A DNA stretch of 64,000 nucleotides from the IMG/VR virus record IMGVR_UViG_3300016476_001289, one strand, 5' to 3'. The notes under the pieces are model-generated. The model was not told where the DNA came from. It did not search any database and was given only the letters and a program-made list of their open reading frames with translations. The position numbers were made by a program, and so were the translations under genes. The DNA is from a virus. Below are positions 173 to 54,763 of this stretch, one piece after another (position 1 is the stretch's first letter; each line of letters starts with the position of its first letter).

Positions 173-1381
173 ATGATTGACAGATACCTAACTGATGAGA
201 TGTCTTATATATGGTCAGACACTAATAAATTTAAAAAATGGCTTCTCATAGAAGAACTTGTTTCTAAATACCAAGACACACCTGAATCACTATTAGAGAA
301 ATTTAAGTCTATTGTTATAGATAAAGAGAGAATATTAGAAATAGAATCTAAAACTAAACATGACTTTATAGCCTTTATAGAGTTTATAGAAGAACAGCAA
401 CCTGATTTAGCTTCCTATTTACATAAGGGACTTACAAGTTCAGATATATTAGATACTACTACCGCCCTTATATTAAAAGAAGCAGGGGAACAAATTATAT
501 ATCGTATAGATAATCTCTTATATGTCTTAAAAGACAAAGCTATAAAACATAAATATACATCTATGTTAGGCAGGAGTCATGGTATGTATGGTGAACCTAT
601 AACCTTTGGTTTAGTAATGACTTCATTTTATAGTGAGTGGTTAAGGAATAAAGAGAGATTAAGAGTAGCGATTGAAAATATCACCTATGGTAAAATATCA
701 GGACCTATGGGTAATTATACAAATATATCACCTTATGTAGAAGAGAATGTCTTAAATGAGTTAGGGTTAAAGATAGAACCTATATCTACACAGATAATAC
801 CTAGAGATCGCCATGCAGAGTTCTTTATGGTGATAGGTCTTATAGGAAGTAGTTTAGAGAGATTAGGTGTAGAGATAAGGAACTTACAACAGTCTTCAGT
901 AGGTGAGGTGAGTGAAGGGTTTAGTAAAGGGCAGAAGGGGTCATCTGCAATGCCCCATAAGAAGAACCCAATAGGGAGTGAGAATATATGTGGGTTAGCG
1001 AGATTATTAAGAGGGTATGTATTACCTGTATTAGAGAATGTGCCATTATGGTATGAGAGAGATATGAGTCATTCATCGGTGGAGAGGGTGGTGTTTATAG
1101 ATAGTACAGGATTATGTGATTATGCGATAAAGAGGATGGTGGGAATAATAGAGAATTTAGAGGTGCATAAGGATATAATGGAGAAGCATATAACAGAGAG
1201 TAGGGGGGTGTATAATTCACAGTCGAAGTTAATGAAGTTAATGGAGAGTTTAAAGAGTAGGGAGAAAGCATATGAGGTGATACAGAAGATGGTATTTAGT
1301 GGAGAGGTATTAGAAGATGAGAAGGATTATAAGGAGTATGTGGATTATATATATAAGAGAGTATATGGTTTAGATAAGTAA
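173..1381 (+). CDS. purB: Adenylosuccinate lyase
   Basis: Fumarate-lyase signature GSSAMPHKKNP, plus GRSHG, LHKGLTSSD and ERDMSHSSVER; 402 aa. Confidence 0.95.
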   Translation: MIDRYLTDEMSYIWSDTNKFKKWLLIEELVSKYQDTPESLLEKFKSIVIDKERILEIESKTKHDFIAFIEFIEEQQPDLASYLHKGLTSSDILDTTTALILKEAGEQIIYRIDNLLYVLKDKAIKHKYTSMLGRSHGMYGEPITFGLVMTSFYSEWLRNKERLRVAIENITYGKISGPMGNYTNISPYVEENVLNELGLKIEPISTQIIPRDRHAEFFMVIGLIGSSLERLGVEIRNLQQSSVGEVSEGFSKGQKGSSAMPHKKNPIGSENICGLARLLRGYVLPVLENVPLWYERDMSHSSVERVVFIDSTGLCDYAIKRMVGIIENLEVHKDIMEKHITESRGVYNSQSKLMKLMESLKSREKAYEVIQKMVFSGEVLEDEKDYKEYVDYIYKRVYGLDK

Positions 1382-1430
1382 TTTATAAACTCCTATATGG
1401 ATATAAACTAATATAGGAGTAATTACATAT

Positions 1431-2135
1431 ATGAGATACCCATTATATAAAAAATATGCCATGCCAGTCGATCCAAGAGTCCTTGAACAAGAAGATTTTG
1501 ACTTTGAAAGTGCAGATAAAATAAAGAGTCTTGTAAGTAAGTTGAAAAAAATAGAAGGTATACAAGAATTTGATTTTTACCAGGAAGAAATTCAAGAAGA
1601 ACTTAGAGAATTGTGGTTTTATGTAGATGTTAAAAAAGGAATAAATTTAAAAGATAGGGAAAAGATATTACCTGTATTTAAAGAACTTGCTCGTATTTTC
1701 AAAGAAAATGAAGTAATACACACAACTGCATATCGTGGGATCACTTTACCTAGACCTTATTATAATCAACTATCAGATGCTTTTGATACAGAAATGCACG
1801 GTGAGTGGTTTTCTGTATCTTCCTTCCCTAGAACGAAAGAATTAATAGAAAGTCTAGCTTATGGTTTAAGATCATGGTCATGGTATTATTCTAATGCAGA
1901 AGGTTGGGCAGGATCTAATATTAATTACCAAGAGGATTCTTATGCTGATTCGATTATATTTGAGTATACCTCCCCTAAAATCGTATTCGATTGTAACTCC
2001 TATTTGAAAGAATACTATTTTCGGAAACACAAATCTCCTTTTGATCCCAACGAAGTCATTATATATCTAAAGAACCCTAAAGCGGTTAAAGCTAAAATGC
2101 TAGGAGAAAGAAAATGGTTAATAAAAATAAAATGA
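1431..2135 (+). CDS. ADP-ribosyltransferase-like protein (R-S-E type), paralog 1, with MRYPLY leader
   Basis: YRG ... LAYGLRSWS ... FDPNEVI; RBS GGAG; paralogous to the next three ORFs. Confidence 0.55.
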   Translation: MRYPLYKKYAMPVDPRVLEQEDFDFESADKIKSLVSKLKKIEGIQEFDFYQEEIQEELRELWFYVDVKKGINLKDREKILPVFKELARIFKENEVIHTTAYRGITLPRPYYNQLSDAFDTEMHGEWFSVSSFPRTKELIESLAYGLRSWSWYYSNAEGWAGSNINYQEDSYADSIIFEYTSPKIVFDCNSYLKEYYFRKHKSPFDPNEVIIYLKNPKAVKAKMLGERKWLIKIK

Positions 2136-2845
2136 GATACCCATTATATAACAAATACGGGATGGCAGTAGACCCTAGAATTCTTCAAGAAGATTATGAA
2201 TCTGAAGGTGTAGACACTATTCCTGAACTTATATCTCTTTTAAAGAGTATTAGATCAGTTGAAGAATATGAGGCAGTTGATGATATTGTAAGAACACAGA
2301 TTAGTGATTTATGGTTTTTAACAAATAAAGGTAAAGGGATAAATTTAAGAGATAGAGAAAAATTAATACCTATCTTTCAACAACTTTCTCGTATCTTTAA
2401 AAAAAAAGAACACCTTACATCTCGTGTATATCGTGGGGTGGCACTTCCTAAGATATATAAAAACCTTTTGACTCAAAGTTTTATAGAAGATCTTAATGCA
2501 GAAGGGAAAGTAGACCTACATTCTCATCCTGAAGTAATTCAAAAAGTAGAGAACCTCGCTTATGGTTTAAGATCATGGACTAAGGATTATGATATAGCAA
2601 ATGAGTGGTCTTATGGTAGTGAAGAACAGGATAGTATTATTTTTGAAGCATCGAGTAAGTTTGCAGTACTTGATTGTAATTCCTATTTTAATACGATGTG
2701 GGAAAAAATAGCAACAAAACAAAAGAGGATGCCTTTTGATTTTGATGAAGTCATCTGTCATTTAGATAACCCTCAAGTGACATATATACAAATGATAGAA
2801 GAAAAAGCAACCACTACAACCTATTGGCTTGTTGGAATAAGATGA
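2132..2845 (+). CDS. ADP-ribosyltransferase-like protein, paralog 2
   Basis: Start moved to MRYPLYNKYG (ATGA overlap with previous stop); YRG, LAYGLRSWT, FDFDEVI. Confidence 0.55.
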   Translation: MRYPLYNKYGMAVDPRILQEDYESEGVDTIPELISLLKSIRSVEEYEAVDDIVRTQISDLWFLTNKGKGINLRDREKLIPIFQQLSRIFKKKEHLTSRVYRGVALPKIYKNLLTQSFIEDLNAEGKVDLHSHPEVIQKVENLAYGLRSWTKDYDIANEWSYGSEEQDSIIFEASSKFAVLDCNSYFNTMWEKIATKQKRMPFDFDEVICHLDNPQVTYIQMIEEKATTTTYWLVGIR

Positions 2846-3623: not shown

Positions 3624-4457
3624 ATGTTTTTCAAAGAAATTTTTAGTAGCCGTAGAGCTAATAGCTTAATTCACCCTGATGTCTTAAAAGATGATTTTAG
3701 TTCCCTAGAACCAAAAGAATATTCAGATATGAAAATATCTGAAATGGCACAATATATCTACGATATGGATATCGATGATGAAGATGAAATTCTTTTTCTT
3801 GCTGAATGGTGGGAAAAAATTTGGTGGAATGTAAATCTAGGTGCAGGTATCCCTATGAAAGATAGAGAAAAATTAGTCCCTGCTTTCAGGGCTATGGGTA
3901 TGGTCTTTAACTATAAAGACTCTTTCCCTACTCTATATCGTGGTGTATATGCTAGACACCAAATCCTTAAAGCTGTTTCTAATGTTATTCTAGGGAATGG
4001 TCATATTTCAGGTGTCATCTCTCAAAATAGCCCCTTATTTATCACCCTTGCTAAAAAATATGGTGTCTCTAAAGCTAATGATATGATTAACCAAGAAACA
4101 ATCCCTGTACCTAAAGAACTATATAATAATAATCCTGCTGAAAAGATTATTAAAGGTCTCTCTTATGGTACTAGGTCTTGGACGGAAGATAAAAAAGATG
4201 CTCTTAAATGGGCTTTTGGTATCTCTGAAAAAGTTATTCCAGGTTCAGATAAATTTGTATTCGCTTTTAAAAACCCAGGTGAAAATGCCTTATTTGAATG
4301 TAATGGTTTTATAGACCACTTCGATGAAGTTATTGGTGAAGAAGCTAAAACTTTTGATGCCGATGAAGTTATTGTTAATGTTCACAATCCTCAAATTGTT
4401 AGCGTCACCCTATCTCCCCATTCTAATGGTTCAAGATATATCGTTACCATTAAGTGA
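3624..4457 (+). CDS. ADP-ribosyltransferase-like protein, paralog 4 (divergent, with internal insertion)
   Basis: RBS AAGGAG before MFFKEIFSSRRA; KDREKL, YRG, LSYGTRSWT, FDADEVI. Confidence 0.5.
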   Translation: MFFKEIFSSRRANSLIHPDVLKDDFSSLEPKEYSDMKISEMAQYIYDMDIDDEDEILFLAEWWEKIWWNVNLGAGIPMKDREKLVPAFRAMGMVFNYKDSFPTLYRGVYARHQILKAVSNVILGNGHISGVISQNSPLFITLAKKYGVSKANDMINQETIPVPKELYNNNPAEKIIKGLSYGTRSWTEDKKDALKWAFGISEKVIPGSDKFVFAFKNPGENALFECNGFIDHFDEVIGEEAKTFDADEVIVNVHNPQIVSVTLSPHSNGSRYIVTIK

Positions 4458-4853
4458 TTTTAAAGTGTCACCATCCATAAACCCATTTTCTTCACTATAA
4501 TATATTATTACACCATTAGGTAATGTTATATATAACTCGTCTTCATAATATGTACTAGACCATATACTACTATCCTTATATATAATCTTACAATCATCTG
4601 AACTTAATCTTATCTCCACCCTTGTTATATATTCCCCATCACCCGTCTCTTCCGATATACTTGCTATAAACTCACACTCTTCTAATTGAAGATCAAATAT
4701 ACTCACTAACCCAGATTCTTTACCTATAAAAGTAAATAACACACTTTGTGTTACTATATCTTCATATATCATTATATCCGTATATACCGATAACTTATCG
4801 TCTATGCTTATTAAGTTATTCTCTATAAGTCCTGTTGAAATTATGTAATCCAT
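4431..4853 (-). CDS. Hypothetical acidic protein
   Basis: AGGAG RBS before MDYIIS; start shifted from the ORF track. Confidence 0.6.
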   Translation of the reverse strand: MDYIISTGLIENNLISIDDKLSVYTDIMIYEDIVTQSVLFTFIGKESGLVSIFDLQLEECEFIASISEETGDGEYITRVEIRLSSDDCKIIYKDSSIWSSTYYEDELYITLPNGVIIYYSEENGFMDGDTLKSLNGNDIS

Positions 4854-4911
4854 TTTATATCTCCTTATAAAGATATAATACCCTAGATTTCTACCACCCT
4901 CCACCTAAAAA

Positions 4912-5094
4912 TTAACTTTTAAGCCTTTTCAAAAGCTCAGATAGAAAATTCACCGATGGATTCGCTATCGTCCTTTGCATAAAGATTAAGTCTTCTCTAA
5001 CTTCTTGTACTACTTTCTCATTTTTACAAATTACTAAATAACTCTCAATCTCAGATTGTAGCCTTTTAGCTTCTTCTACTTTTCTCTTAATCAC
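4912..5094 (-). CDS. Small hypothetical protein
   Basis: 60 aa, GGAGG RBS, co-oriented with neighbours. Confidence 0.55.
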   Translation of the reverse strand: MIKRKVEEAKRLQSEIESYLVICKNEKVVQEVREDLIFMQRTIANPSVNFLSELLKRLKS

Positions 5095-5311: not shown

Positions 5312-5779
5312 TCAAATCCTATCTTCTGTTTGTGGTCCGCAATATACCCATACTGCCCTTATTCTATCTATCACTTCAATTATAAACTTACTCAAAGACA
5401 TTTCTATTTTTATCTTAGAATCCTGAATAGTCAACTCCACTAAATCTTTATCTTTAAAAAGTAAATCTCTTGTATAGCTATAGTGACAAACACTACCATT
5501 ATTATTCAAAATCATGACATACCCACTTATATTGTTATCACATACAAATATCGTTATCCTATCTCTAACCCATTTTCTTATAGGACTATTTTCAATATTA
5601 TTTTCTTCTTCCTTAAAATGTAATTCATTTAAAAACTCTTCTATAATTCCCTTATGAAAAAATTCCCATGCTAAATCTTCATTCTGTTCTTCCTTGATCC
5701 TATTAAGACTTGCCTTAATAGTATTCCAAGCGATATTGTTTATCGTTCTCTTATTGTTTTTGATAATTGTCTTTTTCAT
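5312..5779 (-). CDS. Hypothetical protein
   Basis: 155 aa; start overlaps the vWA gene stop. Confidence 0.65.
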   Translation of the reverse strand: MKKTIIKNNKRTINNIAWNTIKASLNRIKEEQNEDLAWEFFHKGIIEEFLNELHFKEEENNIENSPIRKWVRDRITIFVCDNNISGYVMILNNNGSVCHYSYTRDLLFKDKDLVELTIQDSKIKIEMSLSKFIIEVIDRIRAVWVYCGPQTEDRI

Positions 5780-6594
5780 CTTCTAGGAAACAACCCTTCT
5801 AGGACGGTAATCATTTTTTGTCCTAATGTCTTTGGATCTCTTACACAAATAATATTCTTTGGTATTGCTTTTAAATACCTTTCTTCTGTGTAATAACTAT
5901 CTGCAAATACAATTCCTACAAGGTGAATACCTTGCGCCTTTGCTAAATCTACAAAACTTTGTAGATAAGGATAAACACCATTATCTTCACCATCAGTTAA
6001 AAAGAACGCTACTCTTTTTTGAGCATTTATCTTTTTCACCATATCCAATGCTACTTGGATATATTGACTTACATAAGTGCCTGTATGTGGTTGATACTTC
6101 CAAGCTTCCATAAATATCTCATCAGTCCATTTTTCTTTTGAGTCTTTTAACATACAAGCTTGTGCAACATGGGAATCTGTCGCACCACTAGCATCACCTG
6201 CACTATAACTATCCACACCCACTAAACTACAATTTGAGATAACACCCATGCTCTCAGTCATTTTACCTACCGTATATGCAGCACTTATTACTTTTTCCCA
6301 TGTTGTAGGTCTTCCTGAATCCATACTACCACTAAAATCAATAGCAAATGAAAATCCACATTTTACACTTGGGATTCTATTAAAAGTCTCATATCGATCT
6401 CTATTCTCAATGTTTCTCTTAAGACTCATAAAAGTATCTGTGATTGACGATGAATTTAAATTCGCACCTTCAATCTCAGTGGTTCTTTGCATATTCTCAG
6501 TCATCAATAATCTTCTAAGTTTCATTGCTTGTGGTCTTAAACCTAAATCAATTAAATCAACGACTGCTTTTTGTTTTTGTGTTAAACTTCTCAT
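5776..6594 (-). CDS. von Willebrand factor A domain protein (partner of MoxR/CobS-type AAA+)
   Basis: MIDAS motif DFSGSM, FFLTDG; directly downstream of the AAA+ gene. Confidence 0.85.
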   Translation of the reverse strand: MRSLTQKQKAVVDLIDLGLRPQAMKLRRLLMTENMQRTTEIEGANLNSSSITDTFMSLKRNIENRDRYETFNRIPSVKCGFSFAIDFSGSMDSGRPTTWEKVISAAYTVGKMTESMGVISNCSLVGVDSYSAGDASGATDSHVAQACMLKDSKEKWTDEIFMEAWKYQPHTGTYVSQYIQVALDMVKKINAQKRVAFFLTDGEDNGVYPYLQSFVDLAKAQGIHLVGIVFADSYYTEERYLKAIPKNIICVRDPKTLGQKMITVLEGLFPRR

Positions 6595-6606: not shown

Positions 6607-7677
6607 TTATTCTAAATCGAGGGGACAAATGTTACTATCTGCTGTTGCATTGCTATAAGCATTGACATCAATTTTCAAAATTGGGTCTAATGCACCTACA
6701 AGCTGTTCTGCATTACGAGGATCTTTGAAAGCACCATCAACAACTAGTAATGTTGCTAGTTTCAAAGCTTCATTAAATGCTTTGCTCACACCAATATCTA
6801 AAAATCCTAATGCTGACTTAGCTAGGATATTAGCATCTCTTAAACTCACTTCAAGTGGTAATCCTAAAGTCTTTACGGTGTTTCTCAACACATCTAAAAC
6901 ATCAGCAATCATTTTAGCTTGAGGTTTATCTAATCTCTTGTGATCAGCCATAATGATTTTAATCTCTTGATCCTTAGTAGGAAGGTCTGCTCTAATACGA
7001 GCAAAACGATTCATAATTGAAGCATCGATAGGGTTCGCAATCATAGTGCCATTAGGATCACCATCAACACCTGTATTACCTGTTGCAATAAAGAGTGTGC
7101 CAGGTAATACAGGGATCGCACCACCACGAACATTGTCAATCAAATATGCACTATTACCTACTTGTAAAGCATTTCTCAAAATCTCTAAATCTTGAGGTCT
7201 TGCACGATCCATATCGGATAATAAAATCACATAAGGATAAAGCTTACCATCACGACCTTTAAAACCTTTTACTGCTTTAGCTAGTTCACCATCACTTACA
7301 AAGGATTCAGTGCCACCTGAAGCTGTTGATCTTAATTCAGTGCGACATACCCAGTTATTCGCATTGATACCATCTTTGAAGGCAAATGCTTTAAAAGGGA
7401 TTCTAAATTCAGCACAAATTTGCTCAACGATAGTATCTTTACCACTACCTGCAACACCTTGAATGTATGTGTGTAATTTTGTGTTTAACATACAAAATGT
7501 TGCCATCATCTTCCAATTGCCTGTCTTTTTATCTTCAACAAAATTCTCAATGCCATTTGCTTTTGCATTTTGTGATAACAATTCTGCGTCAGTTAATGGA
7601 TTCACTTTACTTGTGATACCACAAAAAGCTTTAGCGAATACGGAATAAGGATTGAATGCTTGTCTTTGCTTTGCCAT
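6607..7677 (-). CDS. MoxR/CobS/CbbQ-like AAA+ ATPase
   Basis: Walker A GVAGSGKD, Walker B-like ILLSDMDRA, IATGN, ASIMNRF, SLR helix. Confidence 0.85.
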   Translation of the reverse strand: MAKQRQAFNPYSVFAKAFCGITSKVNPLTDAELLSQNAKANGIENFVEDKKTGNWKMMATFCMLNTKLHTYIQGVAGSGKDTIVEQICAEFRIPFKAFAFKDGINANNWVCRTELRSTASGGTESFVSDGELAKAVKGFKGRDGKLYPYVILLSDMDRARPQDLEILRNALQVGNSAYLIDNVRGGAIPVLPGTLFIATGNTGVDGDPNGTMIANPIDASIMNRFARIRADLPTKDQEIKIIMADHKRLDKPQAKMIADVLDVLRNTVKTLGLPLEVSLRDANILAKSALGFLDIGVSKAFNEALKLATLLVVDGAFKDPRNAEQLVGALDPILKIDVNAYSNATADSNICPLDLE

Positions 7678-7963
7678 GATGATTCCTTTCTTAAGAAAAA
7701 TGTAGTTAAAATATCAAATCTTATAAAAACATAAAATTTGATTTTCATCATTGGTAAATCTTATATGTTTTGAACTATTTTTTTCACCAAGTTTAAAATG
7801 TTTAGATATTTCAATCACTTACCAAATAGCCTCGCGGCTGATAAAATGTAGAAATCTAGCGTCAGATTAAATGTAGAAATCTAGGGGGAAAAAGGGGTCG
7901 GGTGGGGGGTCCGCATCCACCCCTTTCATAGATATATAAAACAATATAAAACCCTTTTTATCA

Positions 7964-8000
7964 CCTAGAAATAGGGGGTATGCGGACCCCTATTTCTAGG
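7964..8000. repeat. Perfect 14-bp hairpin
   Basis: CCTAGAAATAGGGG-gtatgcgga-CCCCTATTTCTAGG. Confidence 0.9.
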
Positions 8001-8097
8001 ATAGATTTCTACATTTAATCTGAGCCTAGATTTCTACATTTTATCCGCCGCAGGCGGGTCTCCTAAGTTATCAAAATATCTAAACTTTTTAAAATCG

Positions 8098-8125
8098 TTG
8101 AAAAAAAAGACTCAAAACATAGCAT
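8098..8125 (+). promoter_or_regulatory. Possible sigma70-type promoter for the rightward operon
   Basis: TTGAAA-N16-TAGCAT about 40 bp upstream of 8167; a related sequence lies in the mirror arm. Confidence 0.3.
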
Positions 8126-8166
8126 ATTTGAATGATGAAAAAACTCTTTTTTGAAAGGTTTAACTT

Positions 8167-9150
8167 ATGTTAAAGCAATTAACCACAGACGCTTTAGAAG
8201 GCGCAATTTTACAATCCTTAAGTGATTCACCACAATCACCTAAAGAGATTAAAACAAAAGTAGTCGTTATCCTCGCAAGTGATAACTATGAAACTAATTT
8301 AACTACTTCAACAGGACTCGATAACCTCTATATCAAAGTTAAAGACAAATTGAGATCCTGGGGTAAGAAAGGAATTAATTGTAAAGACATAGGTAATGCT
8401 CAATGGGTTCTCGCAAATAGTGAAGTCGTTGAAACTTCACCTAAACCTGTTAAAACACCTAAACCTGTTAAACAAGCTATTGTCGTTAATGAAGAACCTA
8501 CTATCGTTAATGAAGAACCTACTATCGTTGAGACTCAACCTATCGTCAATGATGAACCTATCGTTGAGACTCAACCTATCATCGTTGAACCTAAAACACA
8601 ACCTATCACCATTGAACAACCTAAAAAACAAAACAACACAAAAAAGGAAGAAACTCTTATGGAAACTATTAACAAAAATATCGATATGTGGATTGAAAGA
8701 GCAAAAGCTGACGGTCAAGAAATTGAAAGCACCATTCATGATCTCGAATGTCCTTCAATCCGTGCTTTAGCAATTTCTACCACAAAATGCTTTAGTGATT
8801 ACAAAGCTACGGATGATGAATGTAAAATTTGTCCTCTTGCTAAATGGTGCAGTGAATCACTTAAAAATAACTCTAAGGTGAGCAATGTTCAAGCATACAT
8901 TGCGAACCCCCGTTTAGAAGCAGAAGCAAAGGCAGAAGCTGATGCAAAAGCAAAAGCAAAAGCGGATGCCAAAGCTCAACAACCTGTTGTAAGTCAAAAG
9001 CTAAATGACGCTGTAAGCAAGTTTGGTAAACAAGAGATTGAACTTCAAAGTGATATTAAATGCACAATCACTGGAGACTTGCTCAAAGCAGGAACTAAAG
9101 GATATTTTGTAAATACAATCGGTGTCGTTTCACCTCGTTGCTTTGCTTAA
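8167..9150 (+). CDS. Multidomain hypothetical protein (possible winged-helix N-terminus, PTIV/EPI repeats, Cys cluster, AK-rich linker)
   Basis: 327 aa; repeats at ~8480-8610; CFSDY...ECKICPLAKWC. Confidence 0.7.
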   Translation: MLKQLTTDALEGAILQSLSDSPQSPKEIKTKVVVILASDNYETNLTTSTGLDNLYIKVKDKLRSWGKKGINCKDIGNAQWVLANSEVVETSPKPVKTPKPVKQAIVVNEEPTIVNEEPTIVETQPIVNDEPIVETQPIIVEPKTQPITIEQPKKQNNTKKEETLMETINKNIDMWIERAKADGQEIESTIHDLECPSIRALAISTTKCFSDYKATDDECKICPLAKWCSESLKNNSKVSNVQAYIANPRLEAEAKAEADAKAKAKADAKAQQPVVSQKLNDAVSKFGKQEIELQSDIKCTITGDLLKAGTKGYFVNTIGVVSPRCFA

Positions 9151-9183
9151 TCACATTACCACCTACACACAAAGGAAATACAC

Positions 9184-9948
9184 ATGACTACTTATATTGA
9201 AAACCTTGAAGCTAACTTGGATAACCTTAGAATCCAAGAATCTAATATTAGAACTGAAATTACTCGCCTTGAAAAAATCTCTAATAATATTGAGTATGCT
9301 GATCACTACTTTCAAAGAACCCAAAAAGAACTCCAAAGACTCTTTCAAGAGCTTGGAACTAATACTATGCCCCAATCTTTTGACCAGCTATCACAAATTA
9401 TCTTAAACAATAGCTTTGATCCCCAAACTCTTATTGATGTTAATAACCAAATACACGCTCTAAGAGATTCTCTTCCTAATACCAGTTTAATAGAAAATAC
9501 TATTAGACTCTCTAAGGATATTGGCTTCACCAGTGATTTACTTGTCATCTTTAATGATATTTGGAATGCCATTAGAGTTAATGGCACTACTAATGCTATT
9601 AAACCTTCTAATTTCAAAAATGAACTTATCACCCAATCCGAAAATAATTCACATAATTATTGGAGTTATCCCAGAACACAATACAAATTAGAAGAAGGTT
9701 CTACTAGAAAAATCTCTAAGGCAATTAGCGTTAATATATGCAAAAACCTTAAAGGCGTTGTGGTCTACCTTATTGACCTCAAATCTAATATGAGAACAAA
9801 ATTTGTCTTAACTGATAGTAATAGTGAAGCTTCTCAAGAGTTATCTATGTGGCTTAAAGGTACTGACCTTTATCAACCTATTGCAAAATTACCTCCCCTC
9901 CCAAGAGATTCTTTTAAACAAACTATCATCGATGCATTTTTAAATTAA
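9184..9948 (+). CDS. Hypothetical protein with N-terminal coiled coil
   Basis: 254 aa, AAGGA RBS. Confidence 0.7.
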   Translation: MTTYIENLEANLDNLRIQESNIRTEITRLEKISNNIEYADHYFQRTQKELQRLFQELGTNTMPQSFDQLSQIILNNSFDPQTLIDVNNQIHALRDSLPNTSLIENTIRLSKDIGFTSDLLVIFNDIWNAIRVNGTTNAIKPSNFKNELITQSENNSHNYWSYPRTQYKLEEGSTRKISKAISVNICKNLKGVVVYLIDLKSNMRTKFVLTDSNSEASQELSMWLKGTDLYQPIAKLPPLPRDSFKQTIIDAFLN

Positions 9949-9957
9949 GGATTTTTT

Positions 9958-10476
9958 ATGTCTTATTCAAATTATGAAAACCTTCCTGATAATCTTAAAC
10001 CACTAGCATACATGAATGTTATTACTAAATACATTCCTGAAAATACTAAAAATTTCAATCTCAAGTCCACACTTCAATGGAATTGGTGCAGTGAATATTT
10101 TGAACCTATTGCCGTCTTCTATGACCCCTTTACTGATAAAGTAAATGTTCACCTCTCTTATGACAAAAGAGAAATGGCTTACTATATACACACATTCTCA
10201 CCAGATACTAAAACCATAGATGTCCTCAAAAGTGATATTCTTGGCTTCCCTTGTATGACCCTTAACTATGACGGAACTTTCCCCATCACCTATCCTACAA
10301 ATATAAACCCCATTGTAGATACCCATGCTAAACACATATATCAACATTGTCTTAAAATAGGTAGAGAATACCACCAAGCTTTACTAACCTTTGAACAATT
10401 TATCAATACTTGTAATCTACACAATTTAAACTTCAATACCACCACAGGTGAAATACTATGTCCTACACAAAATTAA
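9958..10476 (+). CDS. Hypothetical protein
   Basis: 172 aa, AAGGA RBS. Confidence 0.65.
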   Translation: MSYSNYENLPDNLKPLAYMNVITKYIPENTKNFNLKSTLQWNWCSEYFEPIAVFYDPFTDKVNVHLSYDKREMAYYIHTFSPDTKTIDVLKSDILGFPCMTLNYDGTFPITYPTNINPIVDTHAKHIYQHCLKIGREYHQALLTFEQFINTCNLHNLNFNTTTGEILCPTQN

Positions 10477-10877
10477 AAAACAATAAACGAATCTTCAATA
10501 ACAAAAACACTAACCACAAATTTAAAGATATTCTCCCCACCGTCCTAGAAGAAATTAACTTTTCTCTTAAAGACAAATCTATGGAAGGCTTCTTCGATAT
10601 CCACACCTACCAAAAATCTAATATGCTTATACAAATTAGATTTAACCCCGATGACCCAGATACCCAATATCTCTTCTCTGAACCTCAAAATGAATTTTGT
10701 TTTGAAGTTAAACCTAACAACGATTCCTATGACTTATTCTTGTCTGTGATTGAGAATGAATACATTATGCGGACCGTTGACAAAGAACTTGATTGTTCTC
10801 TTGAATGTGCTTTTAACAACCTCTTTGAATACTTAAGAGCAGGTTACTCTGACTCTTCTTTTTGTATCACTAAGTAA
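10458..10877 (+). CDS. Hypothetical protein
   Basis: 139 aa within a co-oriented run. Confidence 0.65.
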   Translation: MSYTKLKNNKRIFNNKNTNHKFKDILPTVLEEINFSLKDKSMEGFFDIHTYQKSNMLIQIRFNPDDPDTQYLFSEPQNEFCFEVKPNNDSYDLFLSVIENEYIMRTVDKELDCSLECAFNNLFEYLRAGYSDSSFCITK

Positions 10878-10890
10878 AGGATTTATACAT

Positions 10891-11460
10891 ATGAACATTG
10901 ATTCATTACAACTCGATAACCAATTCCGATTTGATGAAAGTCTTGACTTTATCACTGAAGATACCAATTACGATCAACCTCTTGTTATGGTCTATCCTCA
11001 AATCGCTGTCGTTGATCAAAATGGTGCTCCCGCTATCCTACTCGTTGTCTATGGTTCTACCTCTGATGATTTTAAGAAACTTTCTCTTAAAACCACCTCA
11101 GGTGAAACTAGGGGTTATAAACGAAAAGGTGAATTTGATGATATTTGTTATTACTTCCTACCTACTTCTAAGTCAGGTGAAATAACTTTATCCGATGGCA
11201 CTAATACTTATCTTGTCTCATGGGATATTATTGATGAATACACCACTAAATTCACCAATCACTATTCTAAAGCTTCTATCCTATTCCTACATGATTATGG
11301 CATCATCCCTGAAGATACCACTAAGCTTAAAGAATATTATATTGAACTTTATCAAAGTCTTGGTGAAGTTGATCCTGAAGAAGGTGAAAATGAATACCAA
11401 GCTAAATTCAAAACACATATCTATAACAAACTCCAAGAACTTCAAAAAATCAATAACTAA
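10891..11460 (+). CDS. Hypothetical protein, paralog of 11490-12002
   Basis: Shared YYFLPxSKSGEIT, DEYTTKFTNH, ASILF..DYGI, KLKE.YIELY. Confidence 0.8.
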   Translation: MNIDSLQLDNQFRFDESLDFITEDTNYDQPLVMVYPQIAVVDQNGAPAILLVVYGSTSDDFKKLSLKTTSGETRGYKRKGEFDDICYYFLPTSKSGEITLSDGTNTYLVSWDIIDEYTTKFTNHYSKASILFLHDYGIIPEDTTKLKEYYIELYQSLGEVDPEEGENEYQAKFKTHIYNKLQELQKINN

Positions 11461-11489
11461 CCTAACCACCATACAAAAAGGATATTCCT

Positions 11490-12002
11490 ATGAATTTACA
11501 ACTTGAAGAACAATTTCTCTTTGATGACAGTTTTGAGTTTCCTCCTTCTGTCAGTGTTTACCCTTACATCACCGTCAATGGCTCTGACCCTATTATCTGG
11601 ATCAGTGCTTATGGCACTAACACTAAACTATTTAAGAAACTCATTATCAAAACTACAATAGGTGAAACTAAAACCCACCAAGAGAAAGGTGATAATGATG
11701 ATATGGAATATTACTTCCTACCTTATTCTAAATCAGGTGAAATAACCATATCTATAGGCAATGACACCTATACTCTCTCTTGGGATCATTTAGATGAATA
11801 TACCACCAAATTCACTAACCACTTTTCTAATGCCTCTATCCTATTCATAAAAGATTATGGCATTGCCCCTAATGATATCACTAAACTTAAAGAACATTAT
11901 ATTGAACTTTATCATAGTGTAGATTCCACTACTGAAACTGCTTCTAAATTTAAAGCTTATCTTTTTAACAAACTTCAAGAAATTCAAGCCTTAGGTAAAT
12001 AA
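11490..12002 (+). CDS. Hypothetical protein, paralog of 10891-11460
   Basis: Tandem paralog with clear amino-acid and DNA similarity. Confidence 0.8.
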   Translation: MNLQLEEQFLFDDSFEFPPSVSVYPYITVNGSDPIIWISAYGTNTKLFKKLIIKTTIGETKTHQEKGDNDDMEYYFLPYSKSGEITISIGNDTYTLSWDHLDEYTTKFTNHFSNASILFIKDYGIAPNDITKLKEHYIELYHSVDSTTETASKFKAYLFNKLQEIQALGK

Positions 12003-12005
12003 CAT

Positions 12006-12623
12006 ATGAACTTAGGTAAAATAAACTTTAACAAAAACAATTTAGATTTTAACACCGTCCTTATATCACATACCTATAACCAACCCTATATGTTAGGTGA
12101 AACACCTGTCACACAAGACCTCTATTATAGAGTCACTGCTAGTAACCCTAGCAAATTCATAGGTAACCCTAATCGCCCTGTTGAACAAGTCTCTTTTTAT
12201 GATGCTATGTTGTTTTGTAATATACTAAGTTCTAAATTTAACCTTGAACCTTATTACACTATAAATACTAACAATATCAAAATAAATGACACTTCCAGTG
12301 GTTTTAGATTACCTACTGCAACTGAATGGCACTTCGCTTGTACTGATTACCACGATATAAAGAAAGTTAATATTCTCGATATAGCTTGGTGTAAAGAAAA
12401 TTCAAATTCTACCACCCACCCCGTAGCTACTAAGAGACCTAATACATGGGGGCTATATGATATGTGTGGTAATGTTGATGAATGGGTACTCCACCATGAG
12501 ATTATAGGTTGTGGTGGTTCTTGGAAAGAACCCCACCTTCATATACCCACAGCAGTCCGATGTGGTTTTCCTTACAATACTCGCAATAATGATCTCGGTT
12601 TTCGTATCGCTAAAAATCTATAG
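12006..12623 (+). CDS. FGE-sulfatase (formylglycine-generating enzyme-like, C-type lectin fold) domain protein
   Basis: RPVEQVSFYDA..FCN, GFRLPTATEW, PNTWGLYDMCGNVDEW, GGSW, LGFRIA. Confidence 0.9.
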   Translation: MNLGKINFNKNNLDFNTVLISHTYNQPYMLGETPVTQDLYYRVTASNPSKFIGNPNRPVEQVSFYDAMLFCNILSSKFNLEPYYTINTNNIKINDTSSGFRLPTATEWHFACTDYHDIKKVNILDIAWCKENSNSTTHPVATKRPNTWGLYDMCGNVDEWVLHHEIIGCGGSWKEPHLHIPTAVRCGFPYNTRNNDLGFRIAKNL

Positions 12624-12641
12624 AAAGGATTATATTTATAT

Positions 12642-13058
12642 ATGCTACACAATCACCTTAAACTTAGAACTGCTATGAGAAACCACCTCTCTGACTTTTC
12701 TTACACCCTTAAACATATCTCTGATATTCGTTCCTTTGGTTTATTCTCTAACACTAAACACTCTTCTAATATGATTGACTACACTCTCATTAATGAAGAT
12801 TCCGAAGTCTTTATTAAACTTGTTAATATGGACTCCAGACCTAAACACAATTTAACTCCCTTTGTCGTTTTCTTTTCTTTTAAAGAATCTGATCTCCCCA
12901 CCTTACTTGACGGTGGTAAAATTACTTTCTCTATTGATGAACCCTTCTCTGATCTCATTCAAGAGGATATGTCTTTAGATCACTTTCTTAACACTCTCTC
13001 TACTATCGTTAAGAAACTTAAAACTACTAAAAATATTAACCTACTCAAAATCATCTAA
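12642..13058 (+). CDS. Hypothetical protein
   Basis: 138 aa, AAAGGA RBS. Confidence 0.65.
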   Translation: MLHNHLKLRTAMRNHLSDFSYTLKHISDIRSFGLFSNTKHSSNMIDYTLINEDSEVFIKLVNMDSRPKHNLTPFVVFFSFKESDLPTLLDGGKITFSIDEPFSDLIQEDMSLDHFLNTLSTIVKKLKTTKNINLLKII

Positions 13059-13353
13059 TCTTTTATTTTCCACCCCACCCTTAGATTTCTTTACCTGTAT
13101 ATATACACCACACCTATACACCTATGTACATCTACTATGCGAGTTTATGCGGACCCCTTACCCTAATAATAAACAGAGGGGATAGTTTTTTCAGTTTTCA
13201 ATTTTTTCAATTTTATTTTTTATATTTACTTGGGGGTAAACCTTATTAGAAATACACCTATCACATATTGCATTTTCATGCCTTATATGATAGAGTATAT
13301 CCTATAAATGATATTTATATTCTTTTTTTATAAATTTGGAGGTAGAAAATAAG
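13059..13353. other. Candidate replication origin at a strand-skew inversion
   Basis: C-rich to G-rich flip on the + strand between co-oriented genes; ATGCGGACCCC at 13147; T-rich tract ~13185-13230. Confidence 0.4.
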
Positions 13354-43566: not shown

Positions 43567-43583
43567 TTTTCGAGGGTCCGCAT

Positions 43584-44360
43584 TCACCCCATTATCTCTC
43601 TTATTTTCTTAGCAAAGAATTCTCTCAAGGGTGGCAACGCTAATGATTTATTCTTATACTCACTATATATCACACCACTAGATCTTAATATCCTTATCTT
43701 CCAAATATGCCCTTCTCTATTTATATCCATATATCCTTGAAACCCATTTTTAAACTCTATATAATACTCAGACCCATTCTCTATATGATTCTCTGTCTTT
43801 AATGTTATTTCATACTTCACTAATATACTCTTTAAAGTACTTATAAAATACTCATAAGGATCATTCCCTATCTTCTTCATAAAATCACCTAAAAACTCTT
43901 TTATATATGGGACATTAGGTATATCAGATTCTGCTTTTTCTATATATTCTCCCATAACATTATATAATGTTATCTCCCAATTATACTTATATTCTTTTTC
44001 TTGTATGCGGACCACATCTAATCTCACTTTTACTAAATACCCATTTGGCGAAGTCGCTTTAACATTCCATACAATATAATCTTTTAACCTTAAACTACCC
44101 TCTGTTCTCTCCACTATATTAAAACTATTTCTATTTAATATCTGTCTCACCGTACTCGTTATATAATTATAACTATCATTTTCTAACTTACTAGGATTCT
44201 TTTTTTTATTCCTATATTTAGATACACATATATTACATACACCATATCCTTCTTTTTTATCTTGATTCCACTTCATAGCCCCTTTTTCACCTAAATCTAC
44301 TTCACCATAACATATACTACACTTTAAGCTATTAGACTTGTCTTGTTCTGTGTTATCCAT
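43584..44360 (-). CDS. Hypothetical protein with N-terminal CxxC...CxxC zinc motif
   Basis: CSIC ... CNIC; 258 aa. Confidence 0.65.
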   Translation of the reverse strand: MDNTEQDKSNSLKCSICYGEVDLGEKGAMKWNQDKKEGYGVCNICVSKYRNKKKNPSKLENDSYNYITSTVRQILNRNSFNIVERTEGSLRLKDYIVWNVKATSPNGYLVKVRLDVVRIQEKEYKYNWEITLYNVMGEYIEKAESDIPNVPYIKEFLGDFMKKIGNDPYEYFISTLKSILVKYEITLKTENHIENGSEYYIEFKNGFQGYMDINREGHIWKIRILRSSGVIYSEYKNKSLALPPLREFFAKKIREIMG

Positions 44361-54691: not shown

Positions 54692-54763
54692 TTAAAATAG
54701 CCTTTCTTTTATTTATTAAATACATAGCATATTTATGAAAAGTCTAAATTCAAGGAGCTATGT

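Follow-up and report, generated by a model that had tools for sequence, protein, structure and literature searches.

A conserved, mirror-symmetric element between divergent operons of an uncultured freshwater huge phage, probably a bidirectional promoter region

The closest described system to the element reported here is that of the PeSLs of the T4-type phages RB49 and phi1, in which a strong early promoter is repeated together with a stem-loop formed by a G-run and a C-run (Arbiol et al. 2010, PMC2839356). The PeSL stem-loop is located upstream of the promoter and acts as a terminator for transcription arriving from outside; shuffling, too, is mediated by the cassettes (PMC2839356). Our element lies between two divergent operons in a 64-kb stretch of phage DNA (the window) and is built around a 15-mer family, AAATGTAGAAATCTA, which we call M1, and an 11-mer family, ATGCGGACCCC, which we call M2. 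Its likeness to the PeSLs is that short cassettes recur in a phage genome (in a relative of the window's phage, twice, the second time between small ORFans), that they may be prone to recombination, and that a putative promoter is combined with what is in some copies a G/C stem-loop. In contrast, PeSLs have a plain sigma-70 consensus with no extra boxes, whereas no conserved canonical -35/-10 pair was found in the element, which adds two invariant boxes (M1 and M2) at fixed spacing, as well as a conserved hairpin-loop sequence. A further difference is that the same cassette is found across phages whose proteins are only 34-50% identical.

In the central control region of the Bacillus phage phi29, sites for the protein p4 are located between the divergent promoters A2c/A2b and A3. 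The region switches early to late, is not mirror-symmetric and is without an M2-type box; its likeness to the element is that several copies of one box lie between divergent (here putative) promoters, an arrangement that would let one factor co-regulate both directions. The C1 operators of phage P1 are dispersed and asymmetric and overlap the promoters that they repress. P1 resembles the element in having one asymmetric operator (a putative one in the case of M1) of about 17-18 bp at several sites in a large phage genome, whereas the M1 boxes of the element lie 40-110 nt upstream of the putative core promoter and always form arrays of two or three. Iteron origins (lambda ori, RSF1010 oriV) and the T4 origins ori(uvsY) and ori(34) are similar to the element in their repeated initiator-type sites, opposite-strand hairpins and winged-helix-like neighbour. 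Unlike iteron origins, the element has no AT-rich centre or skew switch, occurs in more than one copy per genome and is conserved into the putative promoters and leaders. In the searchable literature, the M1 and M2 motif strings matched nothing but primers, by chance.

The window belongs to an uncultured huge phage from freshwater. Its G+C content is 32%, and among its gene products are tail and tail-fibre proteins, DNA methyltransferases, a DnaX-type clamp loader, a CobS-like AAA+/VWA pair, an adenylosuccinate lyase and many ORFans. An intergenic region of 489 nt separates gene 6607-7677 (-) from the divergent gene 8167-9150 (+), and in it a repeat search detected inverted arms at 7756-7883 and 8002-8129 (128 nt, 80% complementary, 118 nt between them) and a perfect 14-nt stem at 7964-7977 and 7987-8000 with a loop of 9 nt. 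The mirror-symmetric element of about 400 bp that an earlier note had read from the letters is borne out by these arms, and its two motif copies per arm at about 25-bp spacing are borne out by four exact 15-mers: AAATGTAGAAATCTA is found at 7844 and 7869 (+) and at 8002 and 8027 (-), 25 nt apart in each arm. Three of the motif positions given in that note (7844, 7869 and 8002) stand, and the fourth, 8026, becomes 8027 when counted as a 15-mer. Its claim that identity is highest in the inner 44 bp or so and decays outwards also holds, since in the alignment the arms show just 2 differences across their inner 44 nt, which comprise two 15-mers and the spacer between them, and identity drops from there outwards. 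The same note had proposed a genome-wide search for the motif; within the 64 kb, the exact 15-mer has no copy beyond its four arm sites. The features of the element and its immediate neighbours are as follows.

5776-6594 (-): VWA protein, next gene in the left operon (VWA_2, 7.1e-06).
6607-7677 (-): AAA+ (AAA_5/CobS-like) ATPase, first gene of the left operon (Pfam AAA_5, 7.5e-05; PHROG 249, 2.9e-18).
7742-7752 (-): purine-rich leader box AATGATGAAAA of the left arm, from the alignment; in most arms it lies about 10-20 nt past the AAAACATA box.
7763-7773 (-): gene-proximal box (TC)AAAACATA(T) of the left arm, a putative core-promoter element, from the conserved columns of 22 arms.
7808-7821 (-): TAAGTnnTTGAAAT box of the left arm, at a distance of 35-36 nt from the outermost M1; putatively a -35-like element or a site of activator binding or bending.
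7840-7883 (+): left M1 pair, exact 15-mers with cores TGTAGAAATCT at 7847 and 7872, spacing 25.
7891-7926 (-): left M2, ATGCGGACCCC at 7906-7916, in a bulged hairpin of a G-run and a C-run, followed by a minus-strand T-run.
7917-7979 (no strand): centre between the M2 boxes, not conserved; 42-63 nt long with an AT fraction of 0.50-0.74 in 11 loci.
7964-8000 (+): right M2, 7980-7990, lying in the loop and 3' stem of the perfect 14-bp hairpin.
8002-8045 (-): right M1 pair, cores at 8003 and 8028, spacing 25.
8045-8057 (+): short GC palindrome CCGCC-GCA-GGCGG past the outer M1, read from the sequence.
8064-8077 (+): right-arm counterpart of the TAAGTnnTTGAAAT box, here TAAGTTATCAAAAT, from the alignment.
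8112-8143 (+): right-arm AAAACATAG box and AATGATGAAAA box, the putative core promoter and transcription start region, from alignment and spacing.
8153-9150 (+): SD sequence GAAAGG, followed by the gene that opens the right operon and encodes a 327-aa protein, from homologues and alignment.

Both motifs are far more frequent than expected in the 64-kb window. When up to two mismatches are allowed, AAATGTAGAAATCTA has 5 matches, a number reached in 0 of 100 shuffles, and with up to one mismatch ATGCGGACCCC has 5 sites against 0.09 expected. Two of these are the back-to-back copies at 7906-7916 (-) and 7980-7990 (+), just where the earlier note had placed them.

Neither mode of blastn retrieved a DNA match to the window among deposited or cultured phages, the 8167 protein likewise has no match among cultured or deposited phages, and protein-based scans of IMG/VR found no relatives. 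The nearest clamp loader, at 41% identity, is that of the uncultured 485-kb huge phage LR745208.1, from which the M1 core is absent. The product of gene 8167 has 10 homologues among public metagenome proteins, and a metagenome scan with an alignment of these homologues yielded 19 loci, from lake and river samples and the JACCD* assembly series. In 15 of 15 loci that cover the upstream region, the 8167 homologue is preceded by the element and the divergent AAA+ gene, and in all relatives the gene to the left of the element is an AAA+ gene starting MARQAFNP. Eleven of the 15 loci are distinct, and all arm statistics given here refer to the 22 arms of these 11 loci, which come from independent lake metagenomes. 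Conservation in relatives, on which the earlier note had made its proposal depend, is therefore present in eleven distinct loci.

From the centre towards either gene, the aligned arms have the same order of boxes in 22 of 22 cases: M2 (ATGCG(G/T)ACCCC), M1 in two or three copies, a short GC-rich segment (found at the outer-M1 position in most arms, as at 8045-8057), the TAAGTnnTTGAAAT box, a T/A-rich stretch, the AAAACATA box, a purine-rich (A)TGA.GAAAA box, the leader, an SD sequence (GAAAGG or similar) and the ATG. The 11-nt core of M1 is identical in 52 of 52 copies from the 11 loci (logo ATAAWA-TGTAGAAATCT-A), the M2 sequence (9-11 nt) is kept in 22 of 22 arms and always oriented toward the downstream gene, and conservation in the alignment continues outward into the leaders of both flanking genes. 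The arm columns outside the boxes are only about 38% identical between genomes, barely above chance in DNA so AT-rich, and the flanking protein is 34-50% identical among the relatives. Conservation of the boxes despite such divergence of both the protein and the non-box columns points to strong selection on them as sequence-specific sites, and the element is real, conserved and functional. We also considered M1 as a palindrome of the CRP/NtcA type and rejected this, as the logo shows a clearly asymmetric site with only TAGA/TCTA being symmetric.

The distances between the boxes fall into rigid and free ones. In most of the 22 arms, the TAAGT box is found at 35-36 nt from the outermost M1; the distance between that M1 and the AAAACATA box is 84-87 nt (86±1) in 17 arms, and among the other five arms, four were mis-anchored by the pattern and have the box in the same alignment column, and one (L014_L) has no match. 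The leader is variable, with about 44-94 nt from the AAAACATA box to the ATG. Each arm has two or three M1 boxes at a spacing of 21-29 nt, occasionally 37-38 nt, and the gap from M2 to the first M1 ranges from 14 to 49 nt (22 arms). The two M2 boxes are 51-72 nt apart. Measured from innermost M1 to innermost M1, the distance between the arms is about 111-131 nt, a variation from which it follows that the arms behave as independent modules. A rigid link between M1 and the gene-proximal boxes, combined with free leader and arm spacing, would fit two head-to-head promoter modules rather than a single symmetric origin complex.

We consider the element to be probably a promoter region that works in both directions under the control of a factor and that consists of two standard cassettes placed head to head. 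The left cassette would drive the AAA+/VWA operon on the minus strand and the right one the operon of the winged-helix/zinc protein on the plus strand. The core promoter would be located near the AAAACATA box, some 45-95 nt upstream of the start codon, with the TAAGTnnTTGAAAT box about 50 nt upstream of the AAAACATA box and the outermost M1 another 35 nt upstream. M1, an asymmetric box of 18 bp in two or three copies about 24-25 bp apart, is the predicted site of a sequence-specific phage protein, which would act on this class of promoter as an activator or a repressor. M2, the innermost part of the module and often a G-run/C-run hairpin with a T-run, is a second predicted sequence-specific site and would delimit or insulate the transcription unit at its upstream edge. 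We infer the transcription starts in the arms, the binding of proteins to M1 and M2 and the direction of regulation from the sequence.

What favours this reading is the fixed spacing to the gene-proximal boxes followed by a free leader, as expected of a promoter with upstream factor sites, together with conservation that extends out to both leaders, which an origin would not need, and a second cassette in a relative between other, unrelated divergent small ORFs. Single M2 copies at unit boundaries, oriented as the downstream gene, also count in its favour, as do the PeSLs of T4-type phages, which provide an experimentally tested precedent for repeated cassettes of a promoter and a G/C stem-loop (PMC2839356). 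The duplicated promoter/operator for both operons that the earlier note had listed among its readings agrees with the mirrored conserved boxes, their fixed spacing and the second copy. The right-arm 13-mer ACATAGCATATTT recurs in a divergent intergenic region of 72 nt (54692-54763) that also shares the following ATGAAAAG with the right-arm gene-proximal boxes and is without M1 or M2. This recurrence at 54.7 kb suggests that the gene-proximal box may be a promoter element which is also used elsewhere.

Against the promoter reading counts the fact that no canonical sigma-70 -35/-10 pair was found at a conserved position in the 22 arms, and the promoter-like matches (9/12) in the window are no more numerous than in shuffles. 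Two such matches overlap the right arm, TTATCA-16-TAAAAT at TAAGTTATCAAAAT, which is not above chance, and TTGAAA-16-TAGCAT at the AAAACATAG region (8112-8143). The distance from the TTGAAA of the TAAGT box to a TAAAAT-like stretch is only 13-15 nt, too short for sigma-70; activator-dependent promoters such as the T4 middle promoters have a geometry nearer to this spacing. Inspection of the arms by eye revealed no sigma-54 -24/-12 or Bacteroidota -33/-7 promoters, and the strong SD sequences would argue against a Bacteroidota host. The iteron-like, asymmetric inverted arrays beside a winged-helix gene count against the promoter reading as well.

To assess M2 further, we compared its copies both within and outside the element. 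The right-hand (plus) M2 hairpin has a DNA fold of -14.3 kcal/mol (z -7.3 against shuffles), and the earlier note's placement of this copy in a perfect 14-bp stem-loop is correct, the motif spanning the loop and the 3' stem. The minus copy likewise lies in a weaker stem, as had been claimed, namely a bulged hairpin of -12 kcal/mol on the plus strand (z -3.6 against shuffles). Strong M2 hairpins (z <= -3) are formed by 8-9 of the 22 copies, including both in the window, and five lineages are without one; a role of M2 as insulator or terminator can thus not be general. Where a hairpin forms, ATGCGG is in the loop and the stem sequences differ between loci, and the equivalent long hairpins of the relatives L026 and L028 differ from each other by one compensatory change. 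Only some of the M2 hairpins are followed by a T-run, and a scan for intrinsic terminators gave one weak site, 7990-7975 (-), with no excess over shuffles. No covariance model of Rfam 15 matched at its gathering score; there were two sub-threshold chance matches to microRNAs. Outside the element, the window contains three further M2 sites.

5333-5341 (-): M2 variant (T)TGCGGACC(A) in the last codons of gene 5312-5779 in the left operon.
13147-13157 (+): single M2 at the end of the right operon, heading a conserved non-coding element.
43573-43583 (-): single M2 with one mismatch, located at a convergent junction and immediately behind the stop codon of gene 43584-44360 (-).

The variant at 5333-5341 is syntenic with an exact M2 on the minus strand in four relatives (L015 at 3354, L016 at 3357, L017 at 3375 and L026 at 3115). 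In the homologues of this 155-aa gene, M2 overlaps the Cys-Gly/Val-Pro end, and the G/T variation of the motif corresponds to Gly versus Val. It therefore seems to be the nucleotide motif rather than the protein that is conserved at this gene end: the G/T variant alters Gly to Val and the M2 motif is kept, which points to selection on a DNA or RNA motif. In relatives, one single M2 copy is located 16 nt before an SD sequence and ATG. The single copies outside the element are found at unit boundaries with the orientation of the next gene, a placement that would fit a boundary signal, i.e., a start, insulation, processing or antitermination site. We examined whether M2 orientation is tied to GC-skew boundaries and dropped the idea, as the sign of the skew beside M2 copies is inconsistent.

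The window contains one cassette pair. A 275-kb contig of a relative contains two, the second flanked by ORFans: the loci L027 and L029 share this contig, and L029 carries a second complete element about 34 kb away, between the divergent genes 1190-1648 (-) and 2143-2463 (+). These neighbours are small ORFs with no Pfam matches, and neither is an AAA+ or an 8167 homologue. In the variable columns, the arms of L029 have an identity of 0.71-0.78 to the opposite arms of the first element and of 0.49-0.59 to those on the same side, and thus the second element represents the entire cassette pair, duplicated in inverted orientation.

The right operon (8167-13058) comprises the gene of the winged-helix/zinc protein and eight further genes, all on the plus strand. 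In the 8167 protein, a winged-helix-like N-terminal domain is followed by a Cys-rich middle part and then by a conserved module at the C-terminus. AlphaFold2 predicted a helix-helix-helix-strand-strand domain for residues 1-88 with a pLDDT of 82-94. Fold matches of the protein are all weak (E >= 0.18), those of the N-terminal domain being mostly to winged-helix nucleic-acid binders (H1/GH5, ZBP1 Z-alpha, Rok, Fur and ORC), and leads from the protein atlas are also of the HTH type, below the reliable range. Pfam and PHROGs assign no DNA-binding family to the operon proteins. Based on its predicted structure, the 8167 protein may be regarded as a reasonable candidate for binding M1 or M2, and as no more than a candidate. 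As a separate observation, its C-terminal 57 residues recur with 77% identity in a stand-alone 75-aa ORF of L029 (5947-6174), about 4 kb downstream of the second cassette and also present in L030 and L031; no paralogue of this C-terminal module was found in the window.

Several other explanations of the element have to be weighed against a bidirectional promoter region. M2 could itself be a promoter that is recognised by an RNA polymerase or sigma factor specific to the phage, or it could be an RNA hairpin signal comparable to lambda nut/boxB, such that transcripts would start at or just before M2 and run outward through M1 boxes serving as downstream operators or roadblocks, with the gene-proximal boxes as a second, tandem promoter. 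The invariable pointing of M2 to the downstream gene in all 22 arms speaks for this, as do the copy 16 nt before an SD sequence and ATG, which leaves no space for another promoter, the retention of the motif through the Gly-to-Val change, and the ATGCGG kept in the hairpin loop of many copies with stems that vary by locus. However, no phage RNA polymerase is seen in the window, where the matches near the three giant genes are of the tail or fibre type and not to polymerases; the copy at 43573 (-) faces the 3' end of a convergent gene; and the absence of a hairpin in five lineages and the few copies per 64 kb do not fit either, leaving M2 unlikely to be the promoter or such a signal. It is also unlikely, and in our judgement no better placed, that the element is an iteron-type origin at which the M1 arrays bind an initiator, possibly the winged-helix 8167 protein, the centre melts, and the outward M2 hairpins, one on each strand, signal the priming of synthesis in both directions. 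The ssiA and ssiB hairpins of the RSF1010 oriV are arranged for bidirectional priming in this way, and T4 ori(uvsY) and ori(34) are promoter-coupled origins, a type that would merge the origin and promoter readings. An origin would be consistent with invariant asymmetric repeats in two inverted arrays (the direct repeats are there at the sequence level), with often hairpin-forming M2 boxes on opposite strands, with an adjoining gene whose confidently predicted winged-helix-like N-terminal domain has the ORC winged helix among its weak matches, and with the single M2 that heads a conserved element at a sharp GC-skew flip (13.1-13.5 kb). Nevertheless, the GC skew does not change sign at the element itself (-0.16, -0.02, -0.08 and -0.09 in 500-nt steps over 7.0-9.0 kb), switching instead at about 4.4 and 13.1-13.5 kb; the centre is not conserved and, with an AT fraction of 0.50-0.74 against 0.66-0.69 locally, offers no AT-rich unwinding element; and the orientation of M2 does not follow the sign of the skew in any consistent manner. 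In addition, one relative has at least two cassettes, the second without an 8167 homologue as neighbour, and conservation and fixed spacing reach the gene-proximal boxes. The origin or packaging site suggested in the earlier note is accordingly weakened by the missing skew switch, the centre that is not AT-rich and the presence of more than one copy per genome.

A further possibility is that the arms and cassettes are primarily sites of shuffling or inversion, or a centromere or packaging site, with regulation being secondary. In the variable columns, left and right arms are more alike within a genome (mean 0.50, window 0.62) than between genomes (0.38), which suggests some gene conversion between the arms; the second cassette of the relative is an inverted duplicate of the first; and PeSLs do mediate exchange (PMC2839356). 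Yet the synteny of the first cassette is fixed in 11 of 11 loci, close relatives agree in the orientation of the centre, the invariance of the boxes and their rigid spacing point to a sequence-specific function and not mere homology, and no recombinase gene adjoins the element according to Pfam and PHROGs, so that we find a recombination or mobility feature quite improbable. A pair of joined inverted genome termini or a fold-back artefact of assembly, for which only the mirror symmetry speaks, can practically be discounted: in contigs of 180-300 kb, the element has an internal position (e.g., at about 243 kb and 209 kb of the 275-kb contig), the same genes flank it in independent assemblies from different samples, and the arms are 80% alike rather than identical. 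The earlier note had rightly thought a fold-back unlikely; its joined termini are refuted by the same internal positions and conserved flanking genes, and of its three readings it is the duplicated promoter/operator that fits the evidence.

Beyond a bidirectional promoter region at this locus, it is conceivable, though we advance this only tentatively, that M1 and M2 are DNA signals through which a freshwater huge-phage clade controls its transcription globally, by a system not described so far, with M2 possibly doubling as a replication start. In such a system, an invariant 18-bp factor site would be held at a fixed distance from a non-sigma-70 promoter, and the oriented 11-nt M2 box or hairpin would be a phage-specific start, antitermination or insulation signal. 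That M2 might double as a replication start signal is suggested by its heading the element at the 13.1-kb GC-skew flip. How huge phages time and insulate the expression of hundreds of genes is poorly understood, and this clade has no cultured member. The module is compact and recognisable by sequence alone, with near-invariant box cores (the M1 11-mer exact, the M2 9-mer but for one G/T position), and may serve as a signature in metagenome searches for related phages and their early or regulated operons. M1 and M2 also provide concrete DNA targets along with a short list of candidate binding proteins. Furthermore, the comparison sets the element apart from the nearby skew-flip element, which is the better origin candidate.

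The skew-flip element is itself a conserved non-coding one, found at 13059-13335 in the window and at about 12200-12450, 11820-12070 and 10000-10250 in L015, L016 and L017, respectively. It contains, in order, the single M2, AGGGG(A)TAGTTTTTTC, T-rich repeats and a CACATATTGCATTT box, and a degenerate M1-like sequence, TAGATTTCT, is located near it. From about 4.4 to 13.1 kb, the plus strand has a negative GC skew whatever the gene direction, the right operon being C-rich on its coding strand, and at 13.5-16 kb the skew jumps to +0.6 to +0.8 with no change in gene direction. Close to the distal end of the left operon, a lone degenerate M1, GGTAGAAATCTAG, is present at 4886-4897 (-) between the genes 4912-5094 and 4431-4904, in the orientation opposite to that of the arm M1 boxes. 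The TAAGTnnTTGAAAT box is confined to the arms of the element in both the window and the relatives.

Searches with M1 outside the relatives gave matches that we rejected. The 16-mer alone had 12 matches in IMG/VR, all single and due to chance, and the tandem-M1 pattern matched seven unrelated IMG/VR contigs, all without M2. Three unrelated, AT-rich IMG/VR contigs (L032 at 1400-1540, L034 at 1580-1740 and L038 at 2200-2400) have intergenic clusters of TGTAGA-nn-TCTACA, as full palindromes or halves and without M2, which may be a wider operator type or chance. In bacterial and archaeal genomes, the tandem-M1 pattern retrieved unrelated repeats that offer no clue to the host, mostly of 33 bp in Bacteroidales MAGs. 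This 33-bp direct repeat, with TGTAGAAATCTCA(C)AA, is present in the rumen and gut MAGs L040-L042, L044, L046, L047, L050 and L051 and is unrelated to the phage element.

Finally, the right leader (8132-8173) contains a 13-codon upstream ORF, ATGATGAAAAAA..., whose TAA overlaps the codons just past the main ATG. Some relatives have no ATG at this position; in others, gene callers took as the start the upstream ATG, which shares the reading frame of the main ORF, giving the N-terminal extensions of P0003-P0005.
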